From Craspedostauros australis (Eukaryota), in NCBI GenBank assembly GCA_030167865.1, contig JALAGF010006515.1, positions 1-58,514 of the forward strand: a DNA stretch of 58,514 nt. Reading direction: 5' to 3'. The position numbers were made by a program, and so were the translations under genes. Numbering within the stretch: position 1 is the stretch's first letter; each line of letters opens with the position of its first letter. The notes under the pieces are model-generated. The model ran no database searches, had not been told where the DNA came from, and worked only from the letters and a program-made list of their open reading frames with translations. Of the stretch, positions 8,588 through 40,808 are shown piece by piece.

Positions 8588-8905
8588 ATGTGCAGACAAA
8601 ACAAGAACACCGCTACCAAGACCATCATGGGCACAGAAAGCAACGCCACGCATATCAATGACACTGCCATCTCATCGTCATCCGCCTTGCTCGCGAACGC
8701 GTCAAGCGCTGCCGCCCAACATCAGCTCCAACTGCAGAGACGGGTCTTGTCCAACGTCCTTTCGCCGACGTCGCGAAGGCTCACGATTCCAACACTTCCA
8801 GCATCGTTCCGACCGCGCCCGGCTGCTGCCGCGTCACCGATGCAGTTGCATGATCTGCTCAATGTCATCGACGACGTCATGGACATCCTCGGAGACGATG
8901 AGTAG
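8588..8905 (+). CDS. Small disordered protein with C-terminal acidic amphipathic motif (copy 1)
   Basis: ATG after a CA-rich leader (caacaacATG); ends LHDLLNVIDDVMDILGDDE*; motif shared with the ORFs at 17804 and 40389. Confidence 0.65.
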   Translation: MCRQNKNTATKTIMGTESNATHINDTAISSSSALLANASSAAAQHQLQLQRRVLSNVLSPTSRRLTIPTLPASFRPRPAAAASPMQLHDLLNVIDDVMDILGDDE

Positions 8906-9313
8906 GAATGCCACCACAGCAATCCTGCCGCGCTCCGCTACATCCATCCATTCCAGTGTACCACTACTGTATAATACCATACAGTCAACTCATCTCATGC
9001 AGCACACCGAGGCGCATGATCGATTTTGAACATACCTACCATACTATACTCCACTCCACCATACTTTACGTTACGCTACGACATCAAACGCAAACTGCAA
9101 CATCAGATGCAATTTGGCTCATGCGGTTGGGCTGCTCGAGAGTACTCAACCATTCGCTACCATGCGATCGCACAACTCCACAATATACTTATAAAATACA
9201 AATAGACCACCACCACCACCACGACATTCCCACATCCTCTACGATAGCCCCTATCAATGCAACGCCGCGCTACGACACACAGCTCCTTCTCCTGCTCTCG
9301 TTCTCTGCTCTCA

Positions 9314-10144
9314 TTAGAGATCCATCTGCGCCAAGCCAAAGGCGAAGGCCGTCACCGCATCGAACGGAGACTGAAAATCCAAATGGTACTCGTCCGTATC
9401 CCATTTCACCATCTGCAGGACGACATCACGGTTCCCATCCTCGTCGCCGGCATGGTGACGCACCAGCTGCATGTTCTTGCGCGATGCGAGGCGGCCGCGA
9501 CCGCCAAAGTTCCACGGGCGCTGGCGATTCGTCAACACGACCTCATCCTGAAGTGACGCATCGCTCCAGCCGATCTGGACTTGCCGGATGGGGCTGTCTT
9601 GGCAGACCTTCCACACGGAATGGACCTTGTACTGCATCGTCATCGCGGCGGTCGCATCGTCCGCGTCCCACTTCAAGGCGTACATCGCGGCATGCTGCGC
9701 GGACAACTGGGCCACGCAGTTCTCGACGTTGCTGGGACGACCAATTGCGTACGTGCGGCACTTGAAATGCATCGCATTGGTCTTGCGCCGTCCCCACATA
9801 ATGGGACGCGGATTGGTCTCGTCGGCGCTGGAATGGTACAGCACGAAATGGTTCGGAGATGTGCGGACCAGCTTGGTGCGGACCATGTCTTGAAGGGTCG
9901 GCGGCGGTGTGGGCATGCATGCGTCACCGCTGATCTCGTCGTGAAATCCATCGACGTTTTGGACGATTGTCGGAGGAGGGCCGTCGCGGTGGTCTTCGCG
10001 GATCTTCATAGTGTTGTCAAGCAAGGGCTTGGCGAGGGCATGCTTTGTGCCTTTGTTACCGTTGCGCTTGCTGTTGTCATCCAAATTGGTGAGGTGGTCG
10101 GCAGGGCCGTTGATCATGAGAGAGTCGGCAGACGGGACCTTCAT
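9314..10144 (-). CDS. Tubby C-terminal domain protein
   Basis: NFGGRGRLASRKNMQL..VVLQMVKWDTDEYHLDFQSPFDAVTAFAFGLAQMD matches the Tub domain C-terminus; likely start MKVPS at 10144. Confidence 0.85.
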   Translation of the reverse strand: MKVPSADSLMINGPADHLTNLDDNSKRNGNKGTKHALAKPLLDNTMKIREDHRDGPPPTIVQNVDGFHDEISGDACMPTPPPTLQDMVRTKLVRTSPNHFVLYHSSADETNPRPIMWGRRKTNAMHFKCRTYAIGRPSNVENCVAQLSAQHAAMYALKWDADDATAAMTMQYKVHSVWKVCQDSPIRQVQIGWSDASLQDEVVLTNRQRPWNFGGRGRLASRKNMQLVRHHAGDEDGNRDVVLQMVKWDTDEYHLDFQSPFDAVTAFAFGLAQMDL

Positions 10145-11097
10145 GGTTTTGACGGCGGAGTTGGATGGGACGGAACGTGGCGTGACGCGACGCGACGCGA
10201 CGCGTGCTTGGAGATCTTGAGCCTTGAGATACGTGGTCGTCCGATCTGATGATTTCAGACGATGACGATGAACGAAATGCGAGCGGTTGTGATCTGAGCG
10301 ACGTCTTGTGGTTTCGTTGTGACTGTGGTGGGGCACTGATTCTGATGTGATGTGGTGTGATGTGATGTCGAGCGAGATCGTTATTGTGACACACACCACG
10401 GACGAAGTGATGGGAAAGCACGATGTGCATGAACCCACAGACGAAGGACCCACCAGCTCGTTGGATTGCATTGCATTGCATTGCATTGCATCATTTCGTT
10501 TCGTTGCACATCGCATCACGCCGTCTTGTCTCGTGTCAACAGCACAACACCGCAACACCATGATGCAGGATTTGCGGAAATGCCATCAACAGGGGCACCT
10601 GGTTTTGTGTTGCAAAATGTGAGAGTGTCGTTTGCGCGATTCGAGTGATCGTGAATAAATTATCGACTCAATTGACCAATATAACCGCCGAAACGGTTGT
10701 AGTCTTGCTTCGGCGCCGCAAGAACACTTCGTTCGTGGGGGTGTTCGCAACCAGCAACAGTGAAACAGTGACAAGAACAAGAACAACAACAGAGCAGCAA
10801 CGTGAAAACACCCACACGACCAAATGAAATGACTGCGACGAGAACGAAGGAACAACAAAGAGGCTCCCATCATCGACAACAGCAGCAGCAGCAGCAACAA
10901 CAACAACACAAGCACAGAGCAGAACAACACAAGGTCCACGCCTGCGCCTCCACACATCAGCTCAGGAACCATACCTGTTCGCAAGACCTCCACAAACTCA
11001 TTCAACAAACCGTCAAGCCATCATCCCTCTCTTGGCTAAACCCTCTTTTCCACTTTCATCAACACACTCGCATTCCATCCATCCATCACCCAGCACA

Positions 11098-11325
11098 ATG
11101 CCCGTCGTTTTGGCTGCCGCAGCAATCACAGGAGCCGCCTACGGGGCGCTCAAGGGCGGGCAAGCCGCTGTGAGGAAGGGCAAGGAGTCCGTCAAGGAGG
11201 CGACTCGCCGCCGGCGCCGCAACCAAGAGAAACGGGAGTTCGAGGCCAAGGCTGCATCGCGCAAGGACAAGATGAAGGCCCTCCAGGCCATGCGCCAAGC
11301 CCACGGTTCCGAATACCGGAGTTAG
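11098..11325 (+). CDS. Small (75 aa) protein: hydrophobic Ala/Gly N-terminus + basic coiled coil
   Basis: acaATG start, strong GC3 codon bias, MPVVLAAAAITGAAYGALKGG followed by a K/R/E-rich helix. Confidence 0.65.
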   Translation: MPVVLAAAAITGAAYGALKGGQAAVRKGKESVKEATRRRRRNQEKREFEAKAASRKDKMKALQAMRQAHGSEYRS

Positions 11326-12638
11326 GGAGAGAGGAGACAAGCCTCCCGTGATCGGTAGATTGGAACAGTTACTCCACAAAAGGCCAATTGATCCACCGCA
11401 GGAGTATTTGTTGAATTCCTCCGTTGTCCTATCCGCTGCCATTCAACAGAATGGCCGAGGATGTCGCAATTGTGTGGACGCTCTGCCGTGGGAGCGGTTG
11501 CGCTGTGTTCGAAGAACGAAAAGAACCAACGCGAGAGATCCCAGCCAACCCAACGAAAGGCAAACGATGAAAGAGCAGCAGCCAGCCACGACGCAAGGTT
11601 CAGAAAACGCATCAACTGTTGCCTCAAATGTGTTTCGAAACAGGAATCCTCACTCTCTGCAGAATGTGGATCCAACTGAACGCGCGGAGAGGCAATTAGC
11701 AGACTGCCCCCCTCGTGACTGCGGAAGTATGATCCTTGGCTATAGGCACCATCCTAGCATGGTGGCGAGGGGTGAGAAAGATCCGGGAGGGCGATGGCGG
11801 CAAGCGCACTTGCGCAAGTACGGTACTGACAAAGAGAAAAAGGATTGGATGGAGGTTGCAAACAGACGCCACACGGATGCGACAAGTTGGAGAAGTGGAC
11901 GGAGTAGATTGCAGGACACTTACCAGATGTATTAACACAAGAAAACGGGGCGCGGTAAAGGTGGGAGACTTTGGTATGAATCTTATGATGACAGTCTGTA
12001 CCATACAGCAGCGTTGAAAGGTCGTAGCACGAGCTAGAGTAGCATATGTTCGATTACCTAAAGCCAGTAGCACCAGTTTATTTACTCCACATTTCACCGT
12101 CACTATCATGCCAAAGGGTTTCCATAATGCTCCAACTACTCCGCTCCTGTTCCGTGAGCATCCATTGCATCCGTACGTTTCTTTCCATTTGTTGGCATTG
12201 GCGCATCCTGCAGAATCCATGGGTGATGGCCCTTGTTTGGGAGATGAAAAGAATGACGAACTTCGGCACGAGCAGCAGGATACTTGTGTTTCTTATCGGT
12301 ATTAATGCTACCTGCGGTATTGGTGGGGGTGCAGTTCGAGTCTGTATGCGTGCTTGTATGTATGGCAACATGCCCACATTTGTCTGGAGGCGAGGAGTTC
12401 CTTTGGCAAAGAGAGAGAGAGCTGCCGAAGAAGAGATCCTCCGAGGAAGCGCACAACGAACATGGGGCCTCTCGATGTTATTCCACCCGAGAGGTGTGCG
12501 GTATTCTGAACCCCGCTCTGCTCTCTTTCTCTGTCTCTCTGACCACAGACACGTCAGACGAGCTTGGACTCCATCACCCAATCGAGAAAGGTGACAACAG
12601 AGTCGTCACAGACTCAACAGAACCTTTTACGACCCGGT

Positions 12639-12784
12639 TGTGTGACGGGACCTGCAGTCGGTCCTGGAGGGGTGGCAACTTACGGGGCTTTCAGCCAAGC
12701 CACCCACATATTCATAAACTATAACAAAATATAAGAATCATAGTGGACGCCGATTTTGCTTTAATGCCTTCTTTTAACTTTTAT
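12639..12784 (+). repeat. Left terminal inverted repeat
   Basis: TGTGTGACGGGACCTGCAGTCGGTCCTGGAGGGGTGGCAACTTACGGGG... is the reverse complement of 17076-17221. Confidence 0.95.
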
Positions 12785-13223
12785 CCATATTTGTAGATTT
12801 ACGGTCCTCTTGGTCGAATATGAGCACTGCTCCGTGATGATCGCAAGGCATTGATTAGCTTTTCCGATGCAAACAACGCAATGTGCGCAGACACGTTCGG
12901 GAAAGAACTTTTTTTGACGGGTTGCGTACGGAATTTGACATTTCAGCGACGCCATTGTTCAACTAGTCCGAGCACGTTTTTGAAATAACAAACCGTTAGT
13001 TGACGTTATCATTCAAATTCAAATTTGACTCTCGTCACGTGTCACCAATCTCCTCACATTTTGCCACCAAATCGAGTTTTGCTTTTCTGCGGTGGTGTGC
13101 TGTGCTTGTGGCATGTTCATGTTCATGTAGTTCTTGTATTGTCACCTTCTTGCACTCCTCCTGCTCAGTTCATTTCCATCATTACTAGTTTTCTCTATCC
13201 GCCCATCAGTACCAATCAGCATC

Positions 13224-16200
13224 ATGCCCGTCTCTACCACGAACGCTGCGTCGAAGGACGCCAATCCTTCTCCCTCCAAGAAGCAGCGTTTTCCCTCCTC
13301 TCCATCCGTGCGTCCCTTCCCATCCGATCTGATTGATTGCAAGGAACTCTTCGCACCATCTACTGCTGAGAAGCTCTTGCCTCCATTGGATATGGATGGT
13401 AAGCAGCACAATCCAACTTCTGCAACAGACAAGCTCCTCCCTCCTGTGCTCGAAGGTGCGACCTTCGACAACGAGTGTGACATTGAGATCCTAGGCAACG
13501 ACGAGCAAAATCGCACACTCAATGCAACCAACGAGAAGCTCTTCGTCTGTGTGCACATCACCACCGATTATGGCATGATTCTTGACACCTCCAAGGTCAC
13601 AGTCCAGGCCTTTGGACAGGGCTCCAATGCTGGGACAAAAGTGCATGTCAAAGTCTGCGTCCCGACTCCTCCAGCTTTCCCCGCACCCCTTCCCNNNNNN
13701 NNNNNNNNNNNNNNNNNNNNNNNNNNNNNNNNNNNNNNNNNNNNNNNNNNNGACAACGAAGCCTTCCGCCCCAAGGGACGCAACAAAATCAAGAGCAGGA
13801 AATCAAATGCGGGAAGATTCCAAAACAAGCACAACACGAACAAGAGAGATGCGTTTGAAACCATCCACAAGGTTTGCAAGAGCTTGGAGTGAAACAACTT
13901 GCGACTATGCTGGCCGACTTTCCTCGTTGCGGATTTGTATTGGGCCGCAAATCCAACAAGCAAGTGTGGAGCAAAGCGAAGAAGATCTTCGCGGTGGCCT
14001 CCAATGCGCTGTGGAAAGCGCTGATTCTGNNNNNNNNNNNNNNNNNNNNNNNNNNNNNNNNNNNNNNNNNNNNNNNNNNNNNNNNNNNNNNNNNNNNNNN
14101 NNNNNNNNNNNNNNTCGTCGGCAAGAAAAACATTGCACGCAAAGCAAGGTGCATTCTTGCCATGTCTGTCTCGCCACGCCAATGTACTAACCTCCTCTCA
14201 CGACAAAAGAGCAAACTTCCTGACGATCAGCGTCTTCGCCTCTTGCCAGAGCAATACACCATCACACGGGGCCAGCTCCTCACTCTGCGCAACTACTACG
14301 AGCTCTTGCGCGAGGGCAATGTGCTTGGTGCTGCTGTTCATGACTATCGTGTCAGCACATACAGCTTGGCTGGCATGGTGTCCTTCATCAGCAACACAAC
14401 CACATACAAGGTGGGCCTTTGTCACAATATCAAATTGGGAGGGGTGATATTTGAAAACGTGCCAGTATTCGAATGTGGCAGAACGAGCGTAGACGAGCTG
14501 TTCCACATGTACAAGATTACAACGAACAATCCAGTCAGCAAGCCAGCATTCTGAGCAATGACAGGCCTGCTCACACACAGAGACAAAGTGGTTACTGGTC
14601 TCTCCTCTTTTGAAAACTACTTCTGGATGGCAATGAAGAAGTTGAAGGAGATGCTCATGCGCTTGAATACCCTACTCGAGGATTCATTCAACAGTGATGA
14701 CGGACATGATGACCTAACCGTGGAGTATATTCAAACCTGTGAGACATTGGTGCGCGATCTGGACCTAATGATCACATGCCTCAAGTGGGAGTATACTGTG
14801 TTGCACATGCAGATCAAGTGCAAAGAAGACTGCATGCACTGCGCTCATTTCGCGCTTCGCTGCGATCCAAAAACGCGACAGGCTAAATCTACACTCAACA
14901 CCACCACCACAACAGCACCTGCCAGCACCGATATGACATGCGTGGTCATTCATCCTCCCACAACAACAACAGAGTGTGATGCCAATGCCATTTCTCCCAT
15001 CACTCATGATCAACAAGGCAAAGTATGTGACAGATGTGGAGACGCGATGCGATTCATGGATGTTCACGTCGCACCATTCATCGAGACGCTCAAGGCCAAT
15101 CATCTTGGCGACCATGAGGATGAATTAGGCAGTATGTTGGAGGCGGTACCAGGCTTCAACAACAAGATCACTGTGTACATGGCACACTGAGTGAGAGCAA
15201 AGGTCCAATTCAATCAGATGAACAAGTACAAGGCCAAGCTCAACAACAATGACAAGTGCGCCTATGTCGTCATCAACCATAAGCAGAAGATTCTGCTGAC
15301 AGCACAAGGAGAATCGCAGACAGAGTACTGGGGCAAGAAGGGCATGTCGCTCCTTGGCGTTATGATTGTCACTTGCAAAGATGACGAATTCACGTATCGC
15401 TTTGTTGATATAATTGTTCATGACCTGCCCACCCAAGACACACTTAAAGTCGGTGGGCTTCTCAAAGCCATCCAGAAGAAGGTACGCGATCTCCTACCAT
15501 CGGTGACAGAAATCATCCTGCAGTCAGACAACGCTGGCTGCTTTGCCAGCCACGAGCACATCGCGCTCGTCTCATCACGGATCAACAAGAATGCGTCATG
15601 CAACGGACTTCCCCAATTTGTCATTTGGATCTACACAGAAGCCCAAACGGGCAAAGGGCGAATCGACACTCACTTCGCCTACATCACTATCGTACTACGA
15701 TCCTATGTGCAAAGTGGTGGCAAAATTCAAACCGAACATGAGATCTTCGACGCATTGCAAATGGGAAATATCAGAGGCACTACCACTGTCTTGGTTGACA
15801 CATCGGGTTTGAAAGGTTGCTGTGTGACGCACAAGACAAATGCACGCATCAGCTTCCACACGAAGGGCATGAATGTACGATCAACGCACGATGTGCAACA
15901 CAGAAACAGCTACACAGACGTACTTGCGGCTTCAAATGTCACTGCTCCAGTACGTGTAGAGGAAGCGGAATGGGAAGACTATGACATCATGAATTTCGAG
16001 GTTCCCATCATCAACGAACACCAATCGACGCAACAACCACTCACAGCAATATCACCGCGGAAGCAGAAAAAGACCCTCAGGTTCGCGAAGAGTGCCACCG
16101 AAAGCAAGGCACTGACGTACCTCGAAGGGATCAACATGGCAGCCTTGGAGACACCTGACGTAAGTAGTGTGCAGCAGGACACCACAGCAGCAACAGAACA

Positions 16201-16807
16201 TCTGCGATTGGCTGAACCTGGCTGGGCTGCGAAAGCCGTACAACGTAACAAGCCCATTCACCCATACCTGGTGGAAGTGTTGGAGGAGGTGTGCAGAGTG
16301 GCACGTGCGGACCTGAAGAACAGACCAACTGAGTACGAGGCATTCAGGCGGTGCATGGAGACAACCAAAATGAAGACTGACTGGTACGCGCGGGTACACG
16401 TGAACCCAATGCGAGTGAAGCAATACATGTCCGCGTCGTACCAGCGCACGAAACCGAAGGCCGCGAACACGAGAACCCCGGAAACCACGATAAACAAAAA
16501 CGTGACAAACACAACGAACACAACTAACACCCCACCACCGACGAACGCGAACAGCACCCACACAGAGATCGTGCCTGCACAACACACAACAGCAGAAGAG
16601 GAGGAAATCGCGCTGCAACAAGAAGAAAACGAAGCATCGGAGCAAATTGCGTGCGAGACACAAACAATGAAGGAGAATACGNNNNNNNNNNNNNNNNNNN
16701 NNNNNNNNNNNNNNNNNNNNNNNNNNNNNNNNNNNNNNNNNNNNNNNNNNNNNNNNNNNNNNNNNNNNNNNNNNNNNNNNNNNNNNNNNNNAGATGAAAA
16801 GGGGTAA
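13224..16807 (+). pseudogene. Sola3-like DDD transposase pseudogene
   Basis: Zn motif CMHCAHFAL..H..CDRC; core VVI(N)HKQK..ESQTEYWGKKGMS..QD..ILQSDNAGCF..YTEAQTGKGRIDTHF; in-frame TGA at 14552 and 15188; probable frameshift near 13880. Confidence 0.8.
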
Positions 16808-17075
16808 AGATGCAGATTATGAGTCTTATCGATGTCGTACGAGTCTGTGCAACTGCTTCACTGCTGGATCGTCCTGGATTAGTGCGCGCGTTCACAAAGT
16901 AACGTCAATTCAACGGTTTCACACGTATCACGGATTGGAGGGACTAAGAAAATAAATTAGCACTGCAATTGACATCGATAATTCTTCTTTTGGCGATACG
17001 AATCAAGGCACCAAGACACCGGATCTGGCCGTAGTGCGCTAGTCGTGTCTAGATGAGCGCGAAATCGATGGGTCC

Positions 17076-17221
17076 ATAAAACTTAAAATAAGAAATTAAG
17101 GAAAAATCGGCGTCCACTGAGATTCTTATATTTTTATCTAGCTTATGAATATGTGGGTGGTTTGGTTGAAATCCCCGTAAGTTGCCACCCCTCCAGGACC
17201 GACTGCAGGTCCCGTCACACA
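17076..17221 (-). repeat. Right terminal inverted repeat
   Basis: Reverse complement of 12639-12784, with scattered mismatches in the inner ~100 bp. Confidence 0.95.
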
Positions 17222-17803
17222 TCCATCTCGTAAACGAGATGGATCATGTGAAAGCCTGCTGGGCTTCGAAGAACGCGCACAGAACAACGAAATTCAGATT
17301 CTCCATCAAAGGCGAAGAAGGAACAAGTATTGTAATGTACTGTTAGGCCGCATCCGTTGTGGAGTACTTTGACGTCAATTATGCCTGAAGCCCTCTGCTC
17401 GCGCATTACGATCCCCTCATCTTCTTTGCACAACAACTGGGTTCTCCCTGGTTCGTTTGTTTGCGACAACGTGTTTCTGTGGATTGGTTGTCTCCCCACG
17501 AAAACTGCGACGCGTTTCACTTGGTAGAGAATTTGATGGGCTTCTGCGGATACGACAACTCGCACCATTTTGGCGTAACAAATTCGGCTCTTTTCCTCAT
17601 ACATTACGTTTGGGGCCCGACACAGAGTCAGCACGAGTGTCTTGCCTTTCGACACTTTTGTTCGGCAGAAGCTACCGTTCACACAAAATCGAAACAGCCA
17701 CAAAGCCAACCACAACCTTACCGCAACATTCCTCGAAAACTCGATCTCCAATCTCAACTCGTACTTGCAACGCACTGCAACACATCCAAATACAATATCC
17801 ACC

Positions 17804-18103
17804 ATGACGCAACAACAATGCAACAGCAACAGCAACAGCAACAATCCTCGTGGCATCGCAGCAAGCTATCACGATCTGAGTGGACTGCGGGCACGACCCA
17901 CATCACTCATATCAGTCGCCGTGCATCAATTTGCTTCAGATGAGGACGCCACAAGGATGGCATCCTCATTCCACAGCCTATGCGCACCACAGCTTCCGTA
18001 CGAGACGCAGCGAGGCCAGCGCTGTGGGCCTGCCATGACAAAGGCGGACCTCATCTCGATCCTCGATCAAGCCATTGACCTCATGGATGATGATGACTTC
18101 TAA
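17804..18103 (+). CDS. Small disordered protein with C-terminal acidic amphipathic motif (copy 2)
   Basis: caccATG after a CA-rich leader; ends KADLISILDQAIDLMDDDDF*. Confidence 0.65.
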   Translation: MTQQQCNSNSNSNNPRGIAASYHDLSGLRARPTSLISVAVHQFASDEDATRMASSFHSLCAPQLPYETQRGQRCGPAMTKADLISILDQAIDLMDDDDF

Positions 18104-18616
18104 ACTCCCATCGGTAGCGGAAGCGACAGCAGCAGCAGCAGCCGCACTGGTGGCGGCATGGAGGGCACCTTCTCGTGTCTGCCCCATGTCGGTCAGCCAG
18201 CAGCAGGATTCACCCGCGCAGGTCCGAGATACTGCATCTCCGACCCGTCCATGCTCTCTCCTTTGTCCGCATACCCCCATGTCCAAACGTTGCGCAAGGA
18301 ACAGCAAGATGCCTTCTGCATCCGATTTTGCAACTACAACTGCATCTGCAACTCTCACGTCCTGTCTTGGCGACATGTCAACGAGCAACACCCATAGAAA
18401 GCAAATAACCACAAATAGAACAAATGCATATGGATAGCAATACAGTAGAGTGGAGTAAAGTCGAGTACTCCAGAATAAAGTGTAATTTTCCCTGCCTTGA
18501 TTGCAGAGTGGTCAACCCACACTGTCTTGCGCGAGCATGAGTCTCGGTTCCAGTGAACTCTTGAGTGTATGGTACCGATGCGAGCAACAACAACAAGAAT
18601 CTATTTTTCGAACCGC

Positions 18617-18688
18617 ATCCCCTGTCCGGCAAGCGGATGCCCGGTGCGGTGATCCCCTGTCCGGCAAGCGGGTGCCCGGTGCGGTGAT
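18617..18688. repeat. 35-bp tandem duplication
   Basis: ATCCCCTGTCCGGCAAGCGGRTGCCCGGTGCGGTG x2 (18617-18651, 18652-18686), one mismatch. Confidence 0.9.
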
Positions 18689-19367
18689 GTGTCGTGTTGG
18701 TGGTTCGGGACTGTCACGGCACCACCTTCATTTGCAGCAAATTTCTCCCGGTATTATCAGGGGAATCTACCCTTGCAGTATTATTTGGCTCGTGGGGACT
18801 GGAGTATTTCAAGCGTTCTCAGTGAGTATTATTCTAATACGTATTCTACGTAAGAGAGTTGCGTGTGCGGTATGGTACTATGAGCGACATGGTACGGGAT
18901 TACACCTCAGCATCACCGTCGTGCATCGCACGGTGTAGGTATCGTAGGTATCATTGCAAGGGTGGCACGGGAGAGATGTCCTCACCGTACCGAAACCATT
19001 GCTGGATGGATCCTTGGCCCACACGCGGATCGTCAAACTGTCGTGAACGCATCACCTACTCTACGTGCAGCCTTGAAAGCCAAACACTGTTCGTGAGTGC
19101 AGGTACCGGACCATACACGTCAGGTAAGAGTTGTTGGTGGGTGAAGTTAATGGAAGTGGAATAGAAGAAAAGTGTACCAACAATAGAGTATTGGTTTCTT
19201 TCGTCTGCCTCTTTTCTGTCTACGAGTGCGTTGGCAGAGGAGCATTTGCGCGCTTCAATATTAATACCGACGGTGCTTCACAATCCGTGCTCATGTTGCG
19301 ATTGCACCATTCCCTTGCGGCAACAGTTGTACCTATATAGCATCCTCCCACCACCATTGAATCAAGC

Positions 19368-20918
19368 TCAATCCAAATCCATGACGTCTTCATCTTCCTC
19401 CACCTCCGCGTCGGCATCCATCTCTTCGACAGTTCCCATGTCATCCATATCGTCCATGTAATCGCCCGATGCCCCGTCGGCATCCTCGGGCGCCATGTTC
19501 CACTTGGATGCCTCTTCCTCCATGCGCTGTCGTCGCTGGCGCTCCATCTCGGCCATCTCCTCGGGCGTCTTTTCGCGGAAGTTGGGATTGTTGGCGCGGT
19601 GCTCGGCACGTCGACGTTCGCGTTCGGCCTTGCGACCTTCACGGCTGCCGTCATTGTCGTGGAAGGCGCCACCAGGCGTTGACGTCTTTTCTTCGGCGCG
19701 GCGTTGTTGATTCTGCTTGCGCTCGCGCTTGGCACGTTCCTGTTCGACGAGCTTCTTCGTTCGCGTTTTGATGCTGGGCAATATGGAAATCTTCTTCATC
19801 TCCTGCTTGTTGCTGACAATGCTGGCGACAAGGTTGCTCATGGGGCCGTAGCCGACGCTGGTGCCCGGCAGGGTGGCGATGCTGGTTTTGAGACGGCCCG
19901 AGCTCTCCTTGCTGGTGGAACCCGAGACCTTTTGGAACATGACGAAGCGCGGCACGCCTGACTCGTACTCTGGCAGATGCTCCTCAAGGTTGAGGACGTA
20001 CAACACGGATGTATCCACGGCCGCGAAGGTGATCTTTGGATGTTCCACCACGAGCTTCGCCATGGCGTCCTTGACGTACTTGGGTGATATTTTGGATCCC
20101 TTGAGCAGCAGACCGCACATATCCTTCTCCAGGCATTTGCCTCTCAGATCCTGCGTGGTTTCGATCTTCTCCGCCTTTGGTTCCAACAGATTCTTCAATG
20201 CCTTGACCAGCATGCTGCCTGTCTTGAGGTGCTTGGCTGGGACCTGTTGAGTTTGGTTCATTGATTAGTTGTTTGTTTGTTAGGTGGAATGCGTGAGATG
20301 GTTGCACATCGTGATGGGTTGAGTGTGAGTCAGTGACGAGGCACGAGTATGATCATGGCACCCATGATGGATGGTGTGGTACATTGCATGTTTGTATCAC
20401 AGAGCAACAACAACAACAACAACAATAGCAATAACAACAATAACATAACTTACCTGCTTGGGCGGCCCGACCTTACCCGAAACAAAGACGGTGGGCCGCT
20501 GCTTCAGTTTCAATTTGAACCGCTCCGCCACGGTCTTTCCCGATTCCAGGACGTGGTTGCAATCCAGCAGGCGGAACTGCGCCGGCGCCGAGGCGTCGTT
20601 GGCAGCATCTTGAAAGACGCTGCTGACGGGGATGTTCTTGGAGGGATTGTCGTCGTGACACAGGACGGCGTAATTGTGGGCACCCTCGCCTTCTCCGAAG
20701 AAGACGTCGCGCAGCTGCAGCTCGTCCTCGACGTTGACGCGGGCGATCTCGCTGTTGATGCCGCGCACGAATTGGTAGGCCAGCAAAGCGAGGCCGATGC
20801 CGATGGCCGGCTTCAGCAGCTTGTCGATGGCTGGTGGGCGTTCCTTGCCCTTGGATGGTGGTGCGGAAGGCTTCGCGGAGCCCTTCTTTGAGCCGCTCTT
20901 TGATTTTGATCCGGCCAT
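19368..20918 (-). CDS. Membrane-anchored protein, probable thioredoxin-like folds without CxxC, charged C-terminal tail (2 exons: 20918-20454, 20243-19368)
   Basis: Basic N-terminus then one TM segment (IGIGLALLAYQFV); FRLLDC..RPTVFV and FAAVD..PRFVMF resemble PDI b-type domains; GTAAG/CAG phase-0 intron (PKQ|VPAK). Confidence 0.75.
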
Positions 20919-27970: not shown

Positions 27971-30714
27971 GAGCCGTGCGCTGCTTCTCGCTCTGGGACG
28001 TCCGCTTGCGTCCTTGCCAGCCAAACACTCGGACCGCTGCGTCTCTGGAGATTTCAGCACCTCACGATGGCATGGCACGTGAGCCAACCGCGCCCACGAA
28101 ACGGTGGACAAAGCGGAGCATCATGCAGCAACAACTACTAAAAACAAAAGTAAACACCCACACCCCCATTCGTATTCAGGAGCCTCCATGCGCGTGGACG
28201 CGCAATAGAGTTTGCTTGTGACTAATAGTTGGAAGTCGGCACGGCGATCCAGGTGGAGACCGTGGCCGTAACCAGCAGCGAACGCCCATGGTACTCCACC
28301 CGCACAGAAAGGTTCGGTCGTGTTGGTCGATTCGTCTCTCATTCGCTCCCTCTAGTTTCTTCATGCCACCTCCACTGCAGAAAATGAGCTTTTGTTGCTT
28401 GCCCAATACTCGCGCAATACTTCAACGACATCGTCCTTACTCGCATCATGCAGGTACCATGCATTCGGCTTTTCACATGTTGCGGACGATCAACATACAA
28501 CGCTGCGCACCGCACACATGATGCTCACATGTTCCATTCCCATCGCAACGACGATGAGGCGATGCACACACACGCCGAGGCACTCGTGAATGCATGAATA
28601 CCCACCATACCACACACACGCGTAGAACCATTTCTCCTCTTCCATCTTCCGGCGCCACTTCCCTCACTCTCCTCGGACCCTGTGTTGCTGCAGAGATACT
28701 GGAATACCTTCACGGAGCCTTTCCCATTGACATTGTTGCACATGCTGAGATTCGTACACATGCTCGGTATTGGTATACTCGCACATTGGTAACTCGACAT
28801 CGACTCGGTTTAGATATATCTACAATCTGAGTCGCCGCGCACAGAGATAGATCCAGGGACCGACGACTCCATGTACACATACGTAGAGTGCTCCGTAAGC
28901 TTACGGAGCGCATGGAGCATGGTACAGCGTACGGTGAATACGAACGTCCCAGGCCGCAACCTGCCGAATCCTGCAGTTCTCTCATCCAGCTGAGTTGGTT
29001 GCCTGCATCTCTCGAGCAAGCAACTGTGATGGACTCCGGGTATCTGTCCTCCCAAGCCGACAATCCACTTTCGGAGGTCCTGTTCGCGGCTGCCATGCTC
29101 TCGCCGCGACCATGGCGAAAAAAGTGATGTTGCGATGAGCCACAGTTGTGCCAACCCGTGCCAATTAAGGAATCACAATTGGCGTGCTGGTATGGACATG
29201 TATCCGTACGAGTGTGCTGTTCCCCGTCCGAGTATTCGTACCGGACGAACAAGAAACCTTGGCTGACGCGTATTGGTGTGGTAAGCACGCAAGTATTCTA
29301 TGATACAATACCATGCCGTTCTCACCGTGCCGCAGCCATCCATGCCTCGACTGGAGGGCGATGGTAAAGCCTGTTCATGTTTGTAAGACTATGATACCAC
29401 ACCCACCAGACCAGACCACACCACAACGTGATGACCAGGTGCGGAACTAACCAGGGATCATGAGCGGTGCAATGGCGTCATCGCACCGCAATATGATGTA
29501 GTGCTGGAAATGCACGCAATTCTCTCATGGTGTTTTTCTTTGGTTTGGTTTGGCTCGGTTTCCGCTGAGGCCTTGCCCTGGTCTGCTTGCGCCACCTACT
29601 TGAGAGTGGGACGCCACCATGGAATCGACCAGAGACCACCCAAGGGCATCATAGGCTCTTGTTTCCTTCTCCATACAAGTGTGATGGAGGTGGTCGATGA
29701 TGCGGAGTACGGCCACACAGTCGGGGAGAGTAGTGTACATCATACCCGATGAGGGATGAACCTGCATTGGATGCATCCCGCAGTCTTGCTTGCTTGATTC
29801 CATTGCTGATGTGCTCACACGTTCCTGTTCGAACTTTGCATGGCAATTGCGCAGCATGCCGCATGGATGTACGTATCAGACCCTGTCGAAGGCGGCGTTT
29901 CTGATCGAATGGTTCACCTGTCGATGCTCAATACACTGCAGTACAAATCATATGCGGGAGAGTGTGGTCCATCCTCCGCCATGAAGCACCGCAATGTGTT
30001 CGAGTAGAGCAACGCAGAATGCTGCGGTGGAAGCATTGGCATGTTACTGCATGGTATTTTGCATTCCACGACTTCATGATGGAGAGGGGGCAAAGAAGGC
30101 CATATTTCGGATGGAGCAGATGTGAGCGCAGCCAAAGTTGGATGGGTAGATGGTTGTTGTTGAAGCTGAATTGGATATCGCTGTTCCCGCAGTGCGACTG
30201 GCAGATGTTGTTGTTCGAGACACACAATCCTGGAAGGACGGCACTTAGATTCCAGCAACTTCAACGCTGGAAAATGGGCTTACCTTGGATGGCTGGGTGT
30301 TCTGTGCTCCCGCCACCACTCTCATTCACCGCTGTTGGTTTTGGTACCATTTTCACTGCCTCCAACGCCTCATCTTGCCGCCGATGGTGTGGTTACCACC
30401 ACCATTACGCTGCTGCTGCTGCTGCTACTCCTGCCGTCACCCGGTGCCAACCCACACAAGGTGCTTCACAGCACTTTCGTCTTCTTCTTGCAGCAAGCCC
30501 ATATGTTAGCGCCACTAATTACTGTTTTCGATGCCTTGCCGTACATACCGTCAATGATGCGTCTACCATCACCACCCTCAATTGCTTCTTGTTTCTCAAC
30601 GCCAATATGGATGGAGTAGAGTATAGTAGTTCCATTTTGTTGGAGGACTATGCACCACTCGTTAGTACTATACCACCGATGATGCTGTTGTTGTTAGGGC
30701 GCTGCTGCCCGGTG

Positions 30715-32706: not shown

Positions 32707-33561
32707 CTTGGGTTTGTGCTAGCAAAACCACCACAGGTGTACCTTGCTCATGTTATGGCACATTTGTTATGGGGGGAAACAAGAGGTGTGCTTCTCGGGT
32801 TTAGTCGCAGCATTTCGCCTTTCGTGGAAATGTACTGAAATAGACCCAATAAAATTATTTTTGAAATGAGCATGTTGCGGAACGACAAAGACCGCACAGA
32901 TCACGATGACGAATCTGGAATAGTCTCTCAGGACATTCCAGCGTGGACGCTCCTCTCTTGTGCGCCACGCATGCCTGAGGACACACCAAAGGAAAGAGCT
33001 GTTGAAACAACAGCGTCCTCGCCGGTCTCTACCCGGCTTTGAGCCCTAGGACAGTTCCAGGCGATGATGCTGTGTGATCGTATCATTGGAAAATCAGCTA
33101 GTTACAATTGATTTTTATGTTGTTTGTTTGGTCTCTCTGTTGTTGCTGTCATGTGTTGTTGCTGCGGTGCTGCTGTTGAGTTGGCACCGTGTCGTGTCGT
33201 CTCGGTTGGCTCTGGTTGCCTAGTCCGTCCGTCGTCGGGTATTGACGAAACCACAGGTAGACCAGGAATGTAGACGTCTTCCCCAACAAGAGCTGCGCGG
33301 TGCAGAGAGGGAGAACCAGCGTGGTAGGGAAAGAAGCGAACACACAACAGAAAGAGACAGACGCCAAAGATCGCTACTCGATGGGTTGACACCTCGAGAG
33401 TGGGCGTGATGACACTGGCAAACAGAGAGAGACGAACCAGCGCGGTGGAGTGTGGATCATAAATCCAAAAAGATCACGATCTCAGCCGCCATCAACACAG
33501 CAGTCAGGATCCAACCAGCTCCCAGCCAGCGCCCCAACAGCCAACAAGAAACATAGACAAG

Positions 33562-33951
33562 ATGTCCGCAGGCGACACCGTCACCACCTTCTTTATCGCG
33601 CTCCTCGTCTTCACCCTCTTCTTCTGGGGATGGGCGGTGCTCAACACCATCGGCATGTCCGACGGGGATTATGATCTCGGCATCATCTCCTTCGCGACGG
33701 TTCTCATGACGTCGTGCTACGTGATCGGGATGCGCTCCGCCGATGCGGTGCCAGCACGCGGCATTCCACGCCACATCATCACCATCTCCCACCTCCTCGT
33801 GGCGATCAACTACTACCTTCCATTCGTCATGGGTGACGACAACCCGTTCGACACACCAGGACTGGCAATCTACTTCGCCGTCTTCACCCTCCTTTGGATC
33901 TTCATCGCCTGGTACGCACGCCAGCTCATCTACAAGGCTGAGGAGATGTAA
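33562..33951 (+). CDS. Small four-TM membrane protein, unknown function
   Basis: 129 aa with four hydrophobic stretches, high GC3, CA-rich 5' leader. Confidence 0.8.
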   Translation: MSAGDTVTTFFIALLVFTLFFWGWAVLNTIGMSDGDYDLGIISFATVLMTSCYVIGMRSADAVPARGIPRHIITISHLLVAINYYLPFVMGDDNPFDTPGLAIYFAVFTLLWIFIAWYARQLIYKAEEM

Positions 33952-35418
33952 GCGCAGCCTGTCCACAGGCGGGATGGGACGGCACCATGATGGTGTTGTC
34001 ACTACGAGTAGAGTGATGGTGATGACGATGGTGATGGCGATGGCGATGGCGATGATGATATCAACAAGGACTACGACGACGATGATTCTACGTGGAGGTT
34101 TTCTCTCAAGGTGGTTCGTCGACCCAGTCGGTGGTTCGTCGGAGAAACTGCGAAAACAATACGTCATGAGACCACCGTAGCGTGGAGCACTGGACATAGA
34201 CCATAGCTCATGGTGTTGTTATCATCAACCCTGCATGCAAGCACAACTCGATAAGCAAACTCTAAAGTACACGTACAAACGACAGGACTGCTCTACTAAT
34301 ACCCTGTGATGTTGAAGCCGTTGCTTGTCGAAGTTAAGTATATTTGTGTGCATGCGTACTGCGCTCGTAGAAGCAAGTCCGCATGTCGACGTTCATCAAA
34401 AAGGCCACGTGTAATTGCAGGCATCGCAGACAGTCGGAGGGTTGTACGAGTAGAGTAGAGAAGAGAGCGTGCATTGTGCTCGTATCATACTCTCTCTCTC
34501 TCTCTCTGGAGTGATTACGAATGCGTGGCAGTTGCGAATGGCCCACCATGGGCAGGACCCGAGACGTGGAAGGCAGGGCCGGAGTGATCGATGCCACCTT
34601 GCAATGAATGAAATGCCATCCGCCGAATTGCTCACCATCATGTCGCAAGTATTCTGTTGGATCATATGCCCTTCGTTGACTGACCAGGGGATGGGTGGAT
34701 AGCCGGCCGCGCTTTGCAGCTGGCGACAGGAGTGATCATCCCCACTGTGTGTTTGTGTTTGTGTTTGTGTTGGCACCATGTGGCATTGCATGTGCATGCG
34801 GGGTGCCTTTCCACGGATGTTGTGTGCATGTGTGCGTGGCTCTGCGGAACCGGTCCCGCTCACAAACTACCGTCGAATGTGCCACACATGGTCGTCACAT
34901 GATGCTGCTCCTCGTGCAGAGCGCATCGGTCTTGACGCATCACTGGAGTATCGGTACCAATCTGGATTGGGTCGCAGTGTGAGTGACTTGAATCGCTCTG
35001 AGGAGTCGCACCTCGTTGTGATAAAGCGTGCTCTACTTGGACATTGCTCAAGTGCAACATGGATAGAGTACTCGTATGTGTGACACCTGTCACTGTAGGC
35101 TGGTCGCACACTCCATCTCCAAATCCTCCATTTGGGAGAGTGAAACCTGGGGTTTGCCTGCTCATCGACAATGTTGAACTTCCTGCCATGCGGTGTCCAA
35201 CGTGCGCCGCGCAGGGCTCTTGCATGCGCTGCACCTATTGTGTGAGCGCTACCGCGATGGCGATGACGCCGGCTTTTGTCGATCTCTCCGATGCAGAAGA
35301 TCATTCCCCAGGTAGACAAGCGGGACCAATCTGCTCATGTTTGCTCATCGAAGCGAATGGAGCAACGGGCATATGTCAGCATCGGTGTCTCATTTCGAAA
35401 TGACCGATCATTGTCAGA

Positions 35419-37208
35419 TCAATCCCTTCCTCCGCTTGCCAGAGTGGATCCGTACGTGCCTGGCCCGCCAGGTCTCAAGAGCTGCGCACTCTCACGTTTG
35501 GCCGCGCTGGACGTGGAACTGTACGACGAGGTGCGCGGGAAGCCCTGGACCTGCCCTCGTGCTAATGGAGGTGTCGTAGTCGGCGTGCTGTTGTTGCTGT
35601 TCCCGCCGTTGGCGTTGCCCCGTCCTGCCGGGTTGCGAGTGTGCATCATGATGAGGAACAACGCAGATGGCACCAGCTCTAGACAGCCATAGCTCCACCA
35701 CCACGGCCAAGAGCCTTTGTTGTCGGGAGCTGCGGCAGCCACACCGTACGGTCCCGCCTGCCCTGCCTCGATGACGGTGAGACAGAAACCGATGATGCGC
35801 GAGCCAAACACGAAGGCGCAGATGACGCAGGTTGCGGCAAGTCGTACGGCCAACGCCGAGTGACGCGACAACGACAGCGATGGTCGCAGAAAGACGACCA
35901 GCTGGAATCCTGATGAGGCGCTGAGACCGAACAGGCCAGTGTAGATGAATGCGAGCAGGCAGTAGATCACCATGCCACCTCCCGTTGGATTGAACCTTTC
36001 TGTGATCACCAAGGTGACGTACATGGCCCATGCGCATAGCTGGATCACGAAGGTCGGCGATGAAGACGTCGATGATTCACCGGAAGCGATGCCCACCAGC
36101 TGCACCAAGAACTTCACCAGCAATGTCCAAGCGGAGCAGAACGTCATTTCCGGCAGCGTATCTGCAGTCACCTGGAACCAGAATTGCTGCGGGTTGGATG
36201 CGATGCCCTGGAAAGGCAAGACGATAGCTCTCAGTACCAGTGCTGCCAAGAGCATCCTCCGGAACTGAGGCGTAGTGTGCGTAGCGCATGGATGCGGATA
36301 TAGGTGTGGATGTGAATGCGGATGTTGAAGTTAACGACGACGACAATGGCAGTGGCGGCGCCAATGTTCACCATGTTTCATCAAGTTGATATTTGATGCA
36401 TCCAGGCAGAGTATGAAGTGAGTATAACAAAATGCAATGCAAGCTGGAGCGCAATACCAATTGAGTAGGCTTTCGTCGAGTACAGGTATGATAGCTCGTA
36501 ACCATCTGCGTTGCCCGTTGTGAAATGGTAGAGGACCCCAAAATGACATTGCATTCATCACAAAATGTGACCTATTGAGTTGAACAGGTGGTCTCACAAC
36601 CAAAACATGATAGCTTGGGTAGTATCCGCAGCAGCATCAAGAGCAATGCCAATGCCAATATCGCTGCCAATACGCCGCCAATAACAAAAACAATGACAGT
36701 ATCAACAGCAACACACGCAACAACGATAGCTTGGTGAGCAACTCTCTCTCTGTCTGTCTCTGTCTCTGTTGTGATTTCCGCATCGTTACATCAAACTCAC
36801 CATGCTCCTCGTGATGTCAGCGCTGCCAATGGCAGGTCCTGGGATGGCTTGCGCTTCGCTTTCTCCCATGGCATGATTCACACCCGACGATGCTTCCAGA
36901 TCGGCGGGATCGGGCCGCTTGTAGGTTTTCAGGATCTTGTACTCCTTGCGCACCTGTATCGTTGCGACCACGATGGCCGCCACGAAGAACAACCACAGCA
37001 GAGTGTGCTGCAGCGGACCAATCCTGTTGGAGGATGCGATGTGGATGCCGATGAAGCTGCTGGCGAACTCGAACCCCGTCGTGCTGGTATCATCTGGGCT
37101 CGCCATTGTGGCATTCTGCGTCTCGATCGTCGCTGCGGTGTTTGCCATGCTCAGCAGCTGAGGGAATATTTCCATACCTTGGTTGGATGCATCGGCGGTC
37201 ATTGCCAT
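35419..37208 (-). CDS. THH1/TOM1/TOM3-like multi-pass membrane protein (2 exons: ~37208-36801, 36264-35419)
   Basis: GTGAGT/CAG phase-0 join (ITRSM|FRRMLL); ~7 TM segments; TLPEMTFCSAWTLLV..LVQL, CVICAFVFGSR and YGCLELVPSALFLIMM resemble TOM1-family motifs; start codon uncertain. Confidence 0.72.
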
Positions 37209-40200
37209 GGCGGCTGCAGTTGAGCAAGGGCGCGATGAGTGGACTGGAAATGGGCGATTGGCTTGCTGAAGAAATGCTGCGATCTTCAGAGGCACTCGTA
37301 TCTTCGTTCCTTCAGTTCTTCTTCTTCTTCTTGTGGATTGAAGTACTCTCCACGACCTTTGGTGCTCCACGCTCTCTGGAGTACTGCTCGTAGAGAGGCA
37401 ATAGCGGGAGATGGCTGTCGTCCCACAGATCCAAGGCCAGATCCGCAGCACTTGGCGACCCCAGGCGTCAGCGCAGACGCAATGGCAATGCTGAGACGAG
37501 GCCCGAAGATCTGATGTCGCGCCGATGGCTGTCATGGAGATGGATGGCATCAGTGCACGCGAGCAAGCTCTCACGAGCAGCGCGGCCAAATACATAGCCG
37601 CAAAAAGACGATGGACCATCATGATCGCTGCTCTTTCCCTGTGCTCTGCACAGAGTGGCCCGATCCTCCCTCCAATCAACACGGAAGCAGCTGCCCAAAC
37701 GCAAACCAGCTGTCTTGCATTGATCGTGGTGGTCATCGCAGAAACGCTTTGTCCACGGATCGTGGATACCAATCAACGTGATCGACTCACGTACCGTCTG
37801 TTGCAAACGTGCATTGTCAAAATAACAGAGTGTCCCAGATTAATATTGTATATCGCAGAAAAAATGATTATCGCGTCCTTCTCGCCACCAAAGGAAGCCA
37901 AACACTGTTGGTGATGTTCGTCTCTGTCCAGAGAGGACTACTGAAGAGTACATCGCACTGAACGCGGATTAGGCGAGGTGTCCTCCGCGTCGTTGGTGGA
38001 CGAATACATCTCATCTCTTTCGCAAGCGAGGAAGTGAAGGAGTCGAGAAAGAGGCAAAGAATTCCGATTTGGAGGCGAGCAGTTAGAGAAAGAACTTGAT
38101 GGATCAGCCGTAACGCAATGTGGAACATAATGGCGGGAAAACAGCGCGGACGCCATCCATTACCTTCTTCCGCCGTGATGATTCGAACATTGGACTGGTT
38201 ACATCCTTCGTTGCACGACACGGGCCACCATCCACCACGATGCTCCACAGCACTCTCCGCAGCAGATGAAGATGCGACGATGCGACCTTTTCCGCGACAC
38301 GAGAGATCGATAAGGCTCTGGAGGGACAATGAGGCGGCTGACGAAACTCGCAAGGGCACAAGGGAACGTATCTCTCTCACCGACGAGAAGATTGACGTGA
38401 TCTCTGCCAAGTTTCTTCTTACATGCACGATCTACCGTGCATAGATGGGAAGCTATGGTGTCGAAGGAGACAGGAACTAAGAGTGCGCAGCAGAAGGCTG
38501 GGCTAGGGTACGAGCTACGAATCACCAACATTCACTCTCATGTTGAAGACGCAGGGACTCTTCGCGGCGCCCCCACATCGTGGGCAACCAACCATCCACG
38601 AGGGGGGATTATGGTAAGAACCCAATGTCGGCAATGAAGATGCTGGTACCGCCCATGACGGCAACGGCACAACCTATCCCGCTGTTGCTCTCTAGAGTAC
38701 TCATGTCGGTTCTCCCCACGCAGGAAGCCCCCGCACAGTACCTCTGTTGAAGACTGATCACGATCACGGTCATAGCTCATGAAGGTTGGGAGCAGTTGGG
38801 GAATTCTACCCCTTCCATTGTCCTTGTTGGACTCGTCCCTCGACTTTGTTTTGGGCGCTCCCTGCCATGTCGGAGTATTCGCATGAGTGTCACTGGTAAC
38901 GCTCTCGGTGACGTTCCTTCTCTGTTGCCACACAGGCGGCGCTCCGAACAATCGAGACGCATGACCACCACAGGACGCGCCTTGTGGACGAAGGAGGCGC
39001 AACGAAACAAAGGCAACGCAACGCAACTCATGCAAAGAAAGGAGAAAAATACACACAAAAGAAGGTCGACAAAGCGATGACTTCTCGTGTTGACCTCTCC
39101 CCTGTTTGAGCACAATTGGGATGTTTTGCCTGGTCTGTTGATACGGTAGCAATTTCACGGTTTGTCGCGAGCGTGGGACAAAATTGCGCGAACAAGACGT
39201 CCACACATCTCTTTCCGATCGCGATCCGTCTTTGCGCTTTTGGTGGTTGGTGGAAGGGCATGTGTTCTTCCACAGACAAACATCGAGACAACAGGGGGGA
39301 AGGGAGGCGCTGGAGACTGTTGCTCCCCGAGAAGGAATGAGTGTAACGAATCTACTCAACTCCAGTAGAGTATGCACGGAACGAGCCATGTGTGCCAAAT
39401 GCAATCCGCAAGCTCATGTTTGCACAAAGGTCGGCCGTCTCGCAGAGAAACCGCATTTTGCAATCCTCCAAAACAACATGAAACACGGCATCGCAAAATG
39501 GCTGATCGTGATATCCGTTTCCATGTGGACATGTTGTGCCTTCCATCACAAAGAAGCTCCGGGCTTACTTAGATCAGCCCATTGATGTTCATTTGCAAAT
39601 CGGCATTCGTTGATCGTGACCACCTTTGTGAAACTTGAAAGCGCCCAAATGATGTTGCAGCACCATGCTTGTTCGCAAGTGATCCAGCATAAGAGGGATG
39701 TCGTTAGTACCTTAGGTACTCTTTTCTCGTTGCTTTGTAAAGTACCCCACCGTCTGCATGTATTATGTAGTAGTTCACTGCCGAGATTCATAAATGTCCA
39801 AACAAGTAAAATAGCGAATGCGGGAAGATGTCGCGAGGCAACCCAACCAAAAACTGACGCACGCCTCCATCTCCCGCGAAAACACGTGTTCTGTTTGCAT
39901 TGCGACAACGTCAGTGGGTGGATCAGACAGATGGCATGTCCCAATCAAACGCAAAAGCGCGGGACAGCGCAGTCATGGCCAACCATTCAAAATGGCTGAA
40001 CCGGTTCTTGCGCTGGACAACGCCAATGCTCCGGAGTGATGACCGAAGGAGGAATTGATCATTTTGTTGCGCCTGTTGCGCGTGTGCAATCACTGAGACG
40101 AACCCGCCAACCAGCTCCAATTCAGCCTCCTGCCCTCGCTACGTGGTTGTAATGGTGATGTCCACGTTGTTGGTGCTGTTGTTTTGCGACCACAGAGCGA

Positions 40201-40388
40201 CAAGCGGCAGCCTTGCGACGCGATCAGGATCACACCGAAAACGAAAATGCTGGCCCCAACAAACGTTGTCATAAATTGATCACAAGCCACTTCACAACCA
40301 CACGCTCATTTTCCATCCACATCCACAGCAACATCCACGTGCCAAAACCAGTGCGTCAAATCGACACCAGACCATCACAGCCAGCATC

Positions 40389-40808
40389 ATGATGAACGAC
40401 CACAAGACGAATCCACGCAATGCATCCAGCGCATCATCCAGTGCAGCAGCCACCTCGCTGTTTCACAGCCAACTGCAATCATCGCGAGCAGACACAAGCC
40501 AGCATCCAAGCCGCACGAACCCACTGCTGTTCCCACCATTTCTTCCCAGCAGTATGAACGGAGATCGGCTGCCATCCACACAGGCACATGGTCCGCTGCA
40601 CCAGCAGTTCATGGCGAATTGCGCATTCAGCCCGTTGGCATTCCAGACCAGACAGGAACAAATGGAATCATCACGAGTCGACCTCATGGAAACCATCGAC
40701 AATGTTTTGGACATCCTCAGAGACGATCTGGGCGATGACAACGTCGATGACGATGAGACCGTGCTGAGCAACGACAGCGACACAAACGGTCACTTCGAGC
40801 CGTGCTGA
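40389..40808 (+). CDS. Small disordered protein with C-terminal acidic amphipathic motif (copy 3)
   Basis: ATG after a CA-rich leader; contains RVDLMETIDNVLDILRDDLGDDNVDDDE. Confidence 0.65.
   Translation: MMNDHKTNPRNASSASSSAAATSLFHSQLQSSRADTSQHPSRTNPLLFPPFLPSSMNGDRLPSTQAHGPLHQQFMANCAFSPLAFQTRQEQMESSRVDLMETIDNVLDILRDDLGDDNVDDDETVLSNDSDTNGHFEPC

Follow-up and report, generated by a model that had tools for sequence, protein, structure and literature searches.

Do three short open reading frames (ORFs), scattered over 32 kb of DNA from the eukaryote Craspedostauros australis, belong to one protein family, and through what would their products act? The ORFs lie on contig JALAGF010006515.1 of GenBank assembly GCA_030167865.1 (positions 1 to 58,514, forward strand); this whole stretch of 58,514 nucleotides is called the window below. 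An earlier note on this DNA had drawn attention to a 16-residue acidic motif at or near the C-terminus of each ORF, and had proposed a family of small proteins acting through one helical docking motif. Our analysis supports the family as real, non-random and probably coding: its members are small, disordered proteins whose acidic C-terminal helix is conserved, and they match none of the families described so far. The three translations given in the earlier note are reproduced exactly, and the ORFs are the following.

8588-8905, plus strand: ORF1, 105 amino acids, codon log-odds +0.17 in its own frame
17804-18103, plus strand: ORF2, 99 amino acids, net charge -5, codon log-odds +0.14
40389-40808, plus strand: ORF3, 139 amino acids, codon log-odds +0.25, motif at residues 98-113 followed by a 26-residue acidic tail

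The codon log-odds score, expressed in bits per codon, was trained on nine large confident genes of the window.

A 16-residue motif occurs exactly three times in the window

Each of the three ORFs contains one copy of the motif. In ORF1 and ORF2 the copy all but ends the protein, and in ORF3 it precedes the acidic tail.

8852-8899, plus strand: motif copy 1, DLLNVIDDVMDILGDD, 25.9 bits, followed by E and the stop codon (1 residue before the stop)
18047-18094, plus strand: motif copy 2, DLISILDQAIDLMDDD, 22.0 bits, followed by DF and the stop codon (2 residues before the stop)
40680-40727, plus strand: motif copy 3, DLMETIDNVLDILRDD, 25.0 bits, 26 residues before the stop

Written as a regular expression, the consensus DL-h-x-h-[IL]-D-x-[VA]-h-D-[IL]-[LM]-x-DD (h, hydrophobic) matches the six translated frames of the 58.5 kb exactly three times, always on the plus strand. 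In 200 dinucleotide-preserving shuffles of the window it is not matched once, and even a highly permissive search pattern, [DE]-h-h-x-x-h-[DE]-x-x-h-[DE]-h-h, gives 0 of 200. The motif is thus commoner than in shuffled sequence, as it should be if the family is real. The analytic expectation for the consensus is about 1e-9, a figure that is inflated because the consensus was derived from the same three copies. For this reason a further check was made with a profile hidden Markov model (HMM) built on the three window copies together with two copies of an outside protein, P0005, described below. Run against all six-frame stretches, the HMM returns the three copies with the scores listed above, and the next best stretch reaches 5.7 bits. 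Given the gap between 22-26 and 5.7 bits, the window has exactly three copies and none weaker.

At the DNA level, a degenerate form of the motif is found at 25 loci in a collection of metagenome contigs, against 3 in the 58.5 kb studied here, and at 24 loci in a 596-billion-base collection of prokaryote genomes, for which the locus count alone is considered. Eight of the 25 metagenome loci represent one high-GC bacterial family, where the match is followed by 85-93 residues up to the stop. At the remaining loci the match is an internal helix or belongs to a tiny ORF of low GC content that is rich in Phe; locus L001 is a 93-residue, bacterial-looking ORF. A D-L... tail on a small disordered protein is encoded by none of the 25 metagenome loci.

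The motif is conserved as protein

Conservation of the motif is seen at the protein level and not at the DNA level. Between the three loci, blastn aligns only a 34-nt stretch within the motif (ORF1 against ORF3, 85% identical) and simple CAA-type repeats in the leaders. Where two copies have the same residue, the codons nevertheless differ in 9 of 22 pairs. Over the motif codons the proportion of synonymous differences (pS) is 0.47-0.59, against 0.22-0.39 for non-synonymous ones (pN), in a small sample of 16 codons.

With the motif removed, the bodies of ORF1 and ORF3 align with a score of 48, compared with 30.9 +/- 5.6 for shuffled sequences (0.95% of 2000 shuffles reach 48), and this weak likeness points to paralogy. 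The bodies of the pairs ORF1-ORF2 and ORF2-ORF3, treated in the same way, do not rise above shuffle level. The description of the three proteins as otherwise unalignable is thus right for the most part. The best reading of the three ORFs is that they are old paralogues whose tails alone were conserved.

The three ORFs resemble genes

The nine training genes range from +0.11 to +0.34 in codon log-odds, and ORF1, ORF2 and ORF3 all fall inside this range. At each of the three loci the five alternative frames score negatively, and so do, in their own frames, the antisense ORFs overlapping ORF2 and ORF3. All three start ATGs are preceded by an A at position -3.

Contigs of a public sequencing run, X1, were compared with the window over 7000-20000. 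The library type of X1 is unrecorded ('RNA?' being a guess), and stretches of this region that no X1 contig covers, such as 7000-8301 and 13076-17415, are uninformative. Two contigs contain motif ORFs.

8595-9224, plus strand: X1 contig of 733 nt, 0 differences, no joint
17720-18436, plus strand: X1 contig of 717 nt, 0 differences, no joint, covered end to end

The remaining 103 nt of the 733-nt contig fall in a simple repeat, 8507-8594, that was skipped in the comparison. The span 17720-18436 consists of an 84-nt leader devoid of ATG, ORF2, and a 333-nt trailer. In both contig spans the motif ORF begins at the first plus strand ATG. If X1 is RNA, ORF1 and ORF2 would be unspliced units of about 0.7 kb with one small coding sequence each.

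The start of ORF1 deserves comment. Its frame is open from 7715, that is, for 291 further codons upstream, and an ATG at 7742 would give a protein of 387 amino acids; position 8588 is an inner ATG of this open frame, and another alternative start is the ATG at 8627. Codon log-odds are -0.01 for the upstream part versus +0.17 for 8588-8902. Translation more likely starts at 8588 or 8627 than at 7742, though this is not proven, and the long frame is probably compositional. Over 7715-9026 all three plus strand frames are open, for 184-396 codons, because this stretch is C+A-rich and poor in stop codons; ORF length is therefore a poor guide to genes there.

Disordered bodies carry a predicted amphipathic helix

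About half of each of the three proteins consists of S, T, N, Q, A, P and G. The highest hydropathy over 19 residues is 0.25-0.69 across the three, and hence none has a membrane segment or signal peptide. The body of ORF1 is disordered, basic and rich in S, A, Q, N and T. Charge is distributed unevenly along the chains: the bodies of ORF1, ORF2 and ORF3 have a net charge of +7, +2 and +2, respectively, and the motif together with the tail -7, -7 and -14.

We modelled ORF3 with AlphaFold2 (AF2) without an alignment. The mean predicted local distance difference test score (pLDDT) of the chain is 57.9, with 58 residues below 50 and the rest outside the helix mostly below 70. One long helix is predicted at residues 82-114, with a mean pLDDT of 92 for residues 91-100 and 94 for residues 101-110; these two blocks cover most of the ORF3 motif (98-113).

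On a helical wheel that we worked out ourselves, motif positions 2, 3, 5, 6, 9, 10, 12 and 13 make up a hydrophobic face of about 180 degrees. Five Asp residues are invariant, at positions 1, 7, 11, 15 and 16, and those at 1, 7, 11 and 15 point to the opposite side. Altogether, the regular expression, the HMM and the AF2 helix agree with the claim that a single helical, acidic, amphipathic motif is common to the three genes. Judging from the ORF3 model and the charge of the tails, the motif also has one set of features looked for in acidic activation domains, namely an acidic amphipathic helix with bulky hydrophobic residues in a disordered context.

One pair of outside relatives, and no match to a named family

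Pfam contains no family matching the three ORFs, or the 387-residue reading of ORF1, at E<=1. The best match of a PDB profile search is the entering helix of an EF-hand in MCFD2, at a non-significant E of 0.15-0.47, and the ESM Atlas holds no usable match for one of these window proteins (P0002) or for an outside relative, P0006. The absence of a named family, asserted from the start, is thereby upheld. Membership in the EF-hand family, in which a 12-residue calcium-binding loop and a second helix come after the first, is rejected: the MCFD2 match is limited to the entering helix, Pfam finds no EF-hand at E<=1, and ORF1 and ORF2 stop 1-2 residues past the helix.

An exhaustive profile search, with the three tails as query and no word index, was run over 1.84 billion proteins. 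It retrieves one protein at E<=0.001, P0005, which is 75 amino acids long, looks otherwise unrelated and originates from a public-run assembly. P0005 has two copies of the motif, CLLNILDEVLDLVGDD at residues 20-35 and VLSILNEALAILEDDE at its very end, and it passes the threshold because it has two. A single copy, worth about 22-26 bits, falls below E<=0.001, and the search is therefore silent on the number of single-copy members. The related P0006, a JGI 'hypothetical protein' of 89 amino acids that is 75% identical to P0005, retains both copies. Seven of the eight substitutions between the two proteins lie outside the 32 motif positions, and the eighth is at motif position 1 (P ~0.08).

In P0005, copy one belongs to the ORF1 type (9 of 15 residues identical, pairwise E 9e-6), and copy two, with S-I-L-[DN]-x-A, is similar to the ORF2 type. 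Comparison of the copies thus gives a hint that two motif subtypes predate the split between these organisms. AF2 predicts helices at both copies of P0005, with a predicted template-modelling score (pTM) of 0.27 and no confident packing between them. P0006 differs from P0005 also by a 14-residue insertion near the N-terminus (its residues 12-25); a short intron left unspliced, or a different gene call, could account for it.

Searches that use a word index return nothing: for ORF3 there are 14 candidates, none at E<=10, and for the five-copy motif alignment, compared with proteins of 157-2000 amino acids, 7998 candidates were scored, again with none at E<=10. The window's own three proteins are absent from the results of these protein-collection searches. 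A full-text literature search, whose scope excludes supplements and subscription journals, finds the motif nowhere described. A lineage-restricted family is the best reading.

Upstream regions

The leaders of the three ORFs are C+A-rich, as described previously, with 73-77 C or A in 100 nt, a level reached by only 1.3% of 100-nt segments; the corresponding range in fourteen further presumed leaders is 41-73. The sites TGACGT and CACGTG, taken as a sign of regulation, are located where the earlier note had placed them, but their frequency lends them no weight. TGACGT occurs 41 times in the window, against 41.7 expected, and CACGTG is depleted about two-fold, with 14 occurrences against 28.9 expected (all 100 shuffles have at least 14). 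The palindrome TGACGTCA is weakly over-represented (5 versus 1.78; 6 of 100 shuffles reach 5), and lies 876 and 434 nt upstream of the ATGs of ORF1 and ORF2, two of the three ORFs. With TGACGT at chance frequency, the suggested control by bZIP factors is not supported.

A 9-mer, TGCGACAAC, is present upstream of all three ORFs.

8357-8365, plus strand: TGCGACAAC, 231 nt upstream of the ORF1 ATG
17462-17470, plus strand: TGCGACAAC, 342 nt upstream of the ORF2 ATG
39901-39909, plus strand: TGCGACAAC, 488 nt upstream of the ORF3 ATG

Further copies are at 41105-41113 (minus strand), 47595-47603 and 47998-48006. The 6 exact copies compare with 0.95 expected, and none of 100 shuffles reaches 6. The three upstream regions have 6 8-mers in common versus 1.85 expected (5% of random triples reach this number) and 1 9-mer versus 0.38 (12%). 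Coming from a post hoc k-mer screen that is borderline overall, TGCGACAAC is therefore a lead only: a weak candidate for a common cis element.

Other features of the window

The genes of the window include Tub, mitochondrial carrier, Sel1 and leucine-rich repeat (LRR) genes, and are eukaryotic. Rfam and tRNA scans of the window found nothing. The following features were also observed.

10920-12091: X1 contig of 1217 nt, the deepest one observed (depth 381.9), between the Tub-family gene and those that follow it
12626-12660, minus strand, and 17200-17234, plus strand: dispersed repeat of 35 nt, 88.6% identical
12626-12634: four X1 contigs agree on the right side and differ on the left (loose ends)
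13695-13751, 14030-14114, 16682-16791 and 58207-58330: four runs of N (57-124 nt), one of them inside a long plus strand ORF, 15191-16804

The stretch 12626-12660 looks like a short repeat common to several units.

A proposed docking helix and its alternatives

We hold it somewhat probable that ORF1, ORF2 and ORF3 are three real, diverged paralogous genes whose products, largely disordered proteins of about 90-140 amino acids, use the C-terminal 16-residue acidic helix as a portable docking motif that folds on binding. In such a mechanism the hydrophobic face of the helix would insert into a groove of one common partner, and the Asp face, along with the Asp-Asp end, would meet the basic rim of this groove. 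The fast-evolving bodies would carry roles specific to each paralogue. As a first guess at the likeliest class of partner, made by resemblance only, we infer the helical-bundle groove of a nuclear co-regulator, in the way that KIX, TAZ or PAH-type domains take acidic activation helices; the proteins would then be small adaptors or competitors.

A wider version of this mechanism is possible but doubtful. It supposes a lineage-specific, unannotated system, of which the three genes would be a small visible part, and in which many fast-evolving disordered microproteins would plug one strictly conserved acidic helix into a single hub, for example a transcriptional co-regulator or a transport receptor, and would compete there. 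The helix would exist in at least two ancient subtypes, an ORF1/ORF3 type, N-h-h-D-x-V...G-DD, and an ORF2 type, S-I-L-D-x-A, both of which would also be kept in a second organism, that of P0005.

Several points weigh against the docking helix. The sole run with the loci is X1, with its unrecorded library type. Aromatic residues, which strong activation domains typically have, are absent from the motif, and Pfam detects no DNA-binding domain in the proteins. The motif also fits loose nuclear-export-signal patterns. The dN/dS ratios that can be derived, about 0.3-0.66, come from just 16 codons, a small sample. Outside the window, only one cluster of relatives (P0005/P0006) was found, the word-index searches giving nothing.

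The main rival holds that the helix is a CRM1-type nuclear export signal (NES), and that the proteins are small shuttling or export adaptors similar to PKI. All five copies, three from the window and two from P0005, fit the spacing of NES classes 1c, 1d and 3, and the motifs are situated in a disordered, acidic context near the C-terminus. These patterns, however, are unspecific: nine ordinary window proteins have 3.5-4.4 matches per 1000 amino acids. Export does not call for an invariant Asp at each of five positions, and no nuclear import signal is evident when the bodies are read in the ORF translations. We regard the export signal as fairly unlikely. Alternatively, the acidic C-terminal motif may be what an enzyme of degradation or signalling, for example an E3 ligase, recognizes. 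The proteins would then be unstable signalling peptides, with an architecture comparable to that of the plant IRON MAN/FEP peptides: small size, a body of poor conservation, several paralogues and an Asp-rich C-terminal motif that is conserved. The IRON MAN motif is a short Asp run with an aromatic/Pro/Ala end, unlike the long amphipathic helix found here, and neither in ORF3 nor in the first copy of P0005 is the motif terminal, which makes a ligase peptide improbable. If the helices bound one another, family members would form homo- or hetero-oligomers. The heptad-like spacing of hydrophobic residues (positions 2, 6, 9 and 13) and the two copies within one P0005 chain would suit self-association, but a net charge of about -6 or -7 per helix makes it electrostatically unfavourable, and the P0005 model, with its low pTM, does not pack its two helices with confidence. 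Complex prediction for two copies of ORF3 residues 78-125 gives a score of 0.02 against a mark of 0.32, which is not evidence either way. We consider self-association very unlikely.

Two further alternatives concern the genes themselves. The ORFs might be last exons of larger genes, with the functional domain encoded in upstream exons. The open frame that continues upstream of ORF1 would allow it, the genome has introns (the Tub and amino-acid-kinase frames are fragmented), and the contig comparison, over 7000-20000, takes in ORF1 and ORF2 only. The contigs of ORF1 and ORF2, on the other hand, contain no joints; their first plus strand ATG, with A at -3, opens the motif ORF; the part upstream of ORF1 is not coding-like, and Pfam recognizes nothing in its 387-residue reading. 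For these genes we judge a last-exon origin unlikely. Finally, the motif could be under no selection as protein, having arisen from a DNA repeat or by chance in non-coding DNA of biased composition. The ORFs are indeed short and lie within C+A-rich, stop-poor DNA. Yet the shuffled windows are empty of matches, the DNA repeat is no longer than 34 nt and stays inside the motif, synonymous differences accompany a kept pattern of residues, the codon signal is specific to the ORF frames, and an independent protein from another source contains two copies. A DNA element or chance product is accordingly highly improbable.

Comparison with known systems

Short docking motifs on disordered proteins are one of the main means of wiring eukaryotic regulation, and those known are nearly all from animals, yeast and plants. 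A strictly conserved 16-residue helix on small, apparently unannotated genes would be a cheap and concrete bait toward a regulatory hub in a poorly studied eukaryote. Small ORFs of this type are missing from very large protein collections, as the absence of the three window proteins indicates.

The earlier note had likened the motif to leucine-aspartate (LD) motifs and to acidic activation helices; the likeness is sound in character, but does not extend to membership. LD motifs too are short docking peptides that lie in disordered regions and form acidic, amphipathic helices. Those of the paxillin-family adaptors have the consensus LDxLLxxL, and their usual partners, such as the FAK FAT domain and vinculin, are animal or amoebozoan proteins. 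The strict consensus is found in 0 of 5 copies of our motif. In its latter half, [IL]-D-x-[VA]-h-D-[IL]-[LM], our motif fits a loosened LD pattern in 4 of 5 copies, against a background of 0.67 per 1000 amino acids. Our motif differs by being twice as long and by its five invariant Asp. A paxillin-like adaptor, which would have LIM domains and several LD copies, is rejected: Pfam shows no LIM domain or paxillin homology at E<=1, and each window protein has one copy of the motif.

Acidic activation helices that bind KIX- or TAZ-type co-activator domains include the CITED2, HIF-1alpha C-terminal and MLL peptides, and CITED proteins are small competitors without a DNA-binding domain. The disordered carrier, the C-terminal acidic-hydrophobic helix and the h-h-x-h-h spacing are alike in these systems and in ours. 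No sequence relation is detected (Pfam has none, and PDB only MCFD2 at E 0.15), and our motif differs by the absence of aromatic residues and by a stricter positional conservation than is usual. Leucine-rich NESs of the PKI/Rev type resemble it in hydrophobic spacing and in their acidic, disordered, near-terminal context; its conserved Asp positions are unexplained by binding to an export receptor. SUMO-interaction, clathrin-box, PP2A-B56, UIM, MIM and EAR-type motifs, compared by eye with their consensus, do not fit all copies.

The IRON MAN/FEP peptides belong to a different lineage, that of plants, and their motif is of a different type, not an amphipathic helix. For the architecture of small peptides, and for that alone, they offer a parallel (10.1101/2021.10.07.463536): their ORFs are small and in many cases unannotated, they have several paralogues, and a body that varies is joined to a conserved C-terminal motif, rich in Asp, for one partner. 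By analogy with these systems, the motif of ORF1, ORF2 and ORF3 may work in the manner of LD motifs or acidic activation helices, while belonging to neither class.

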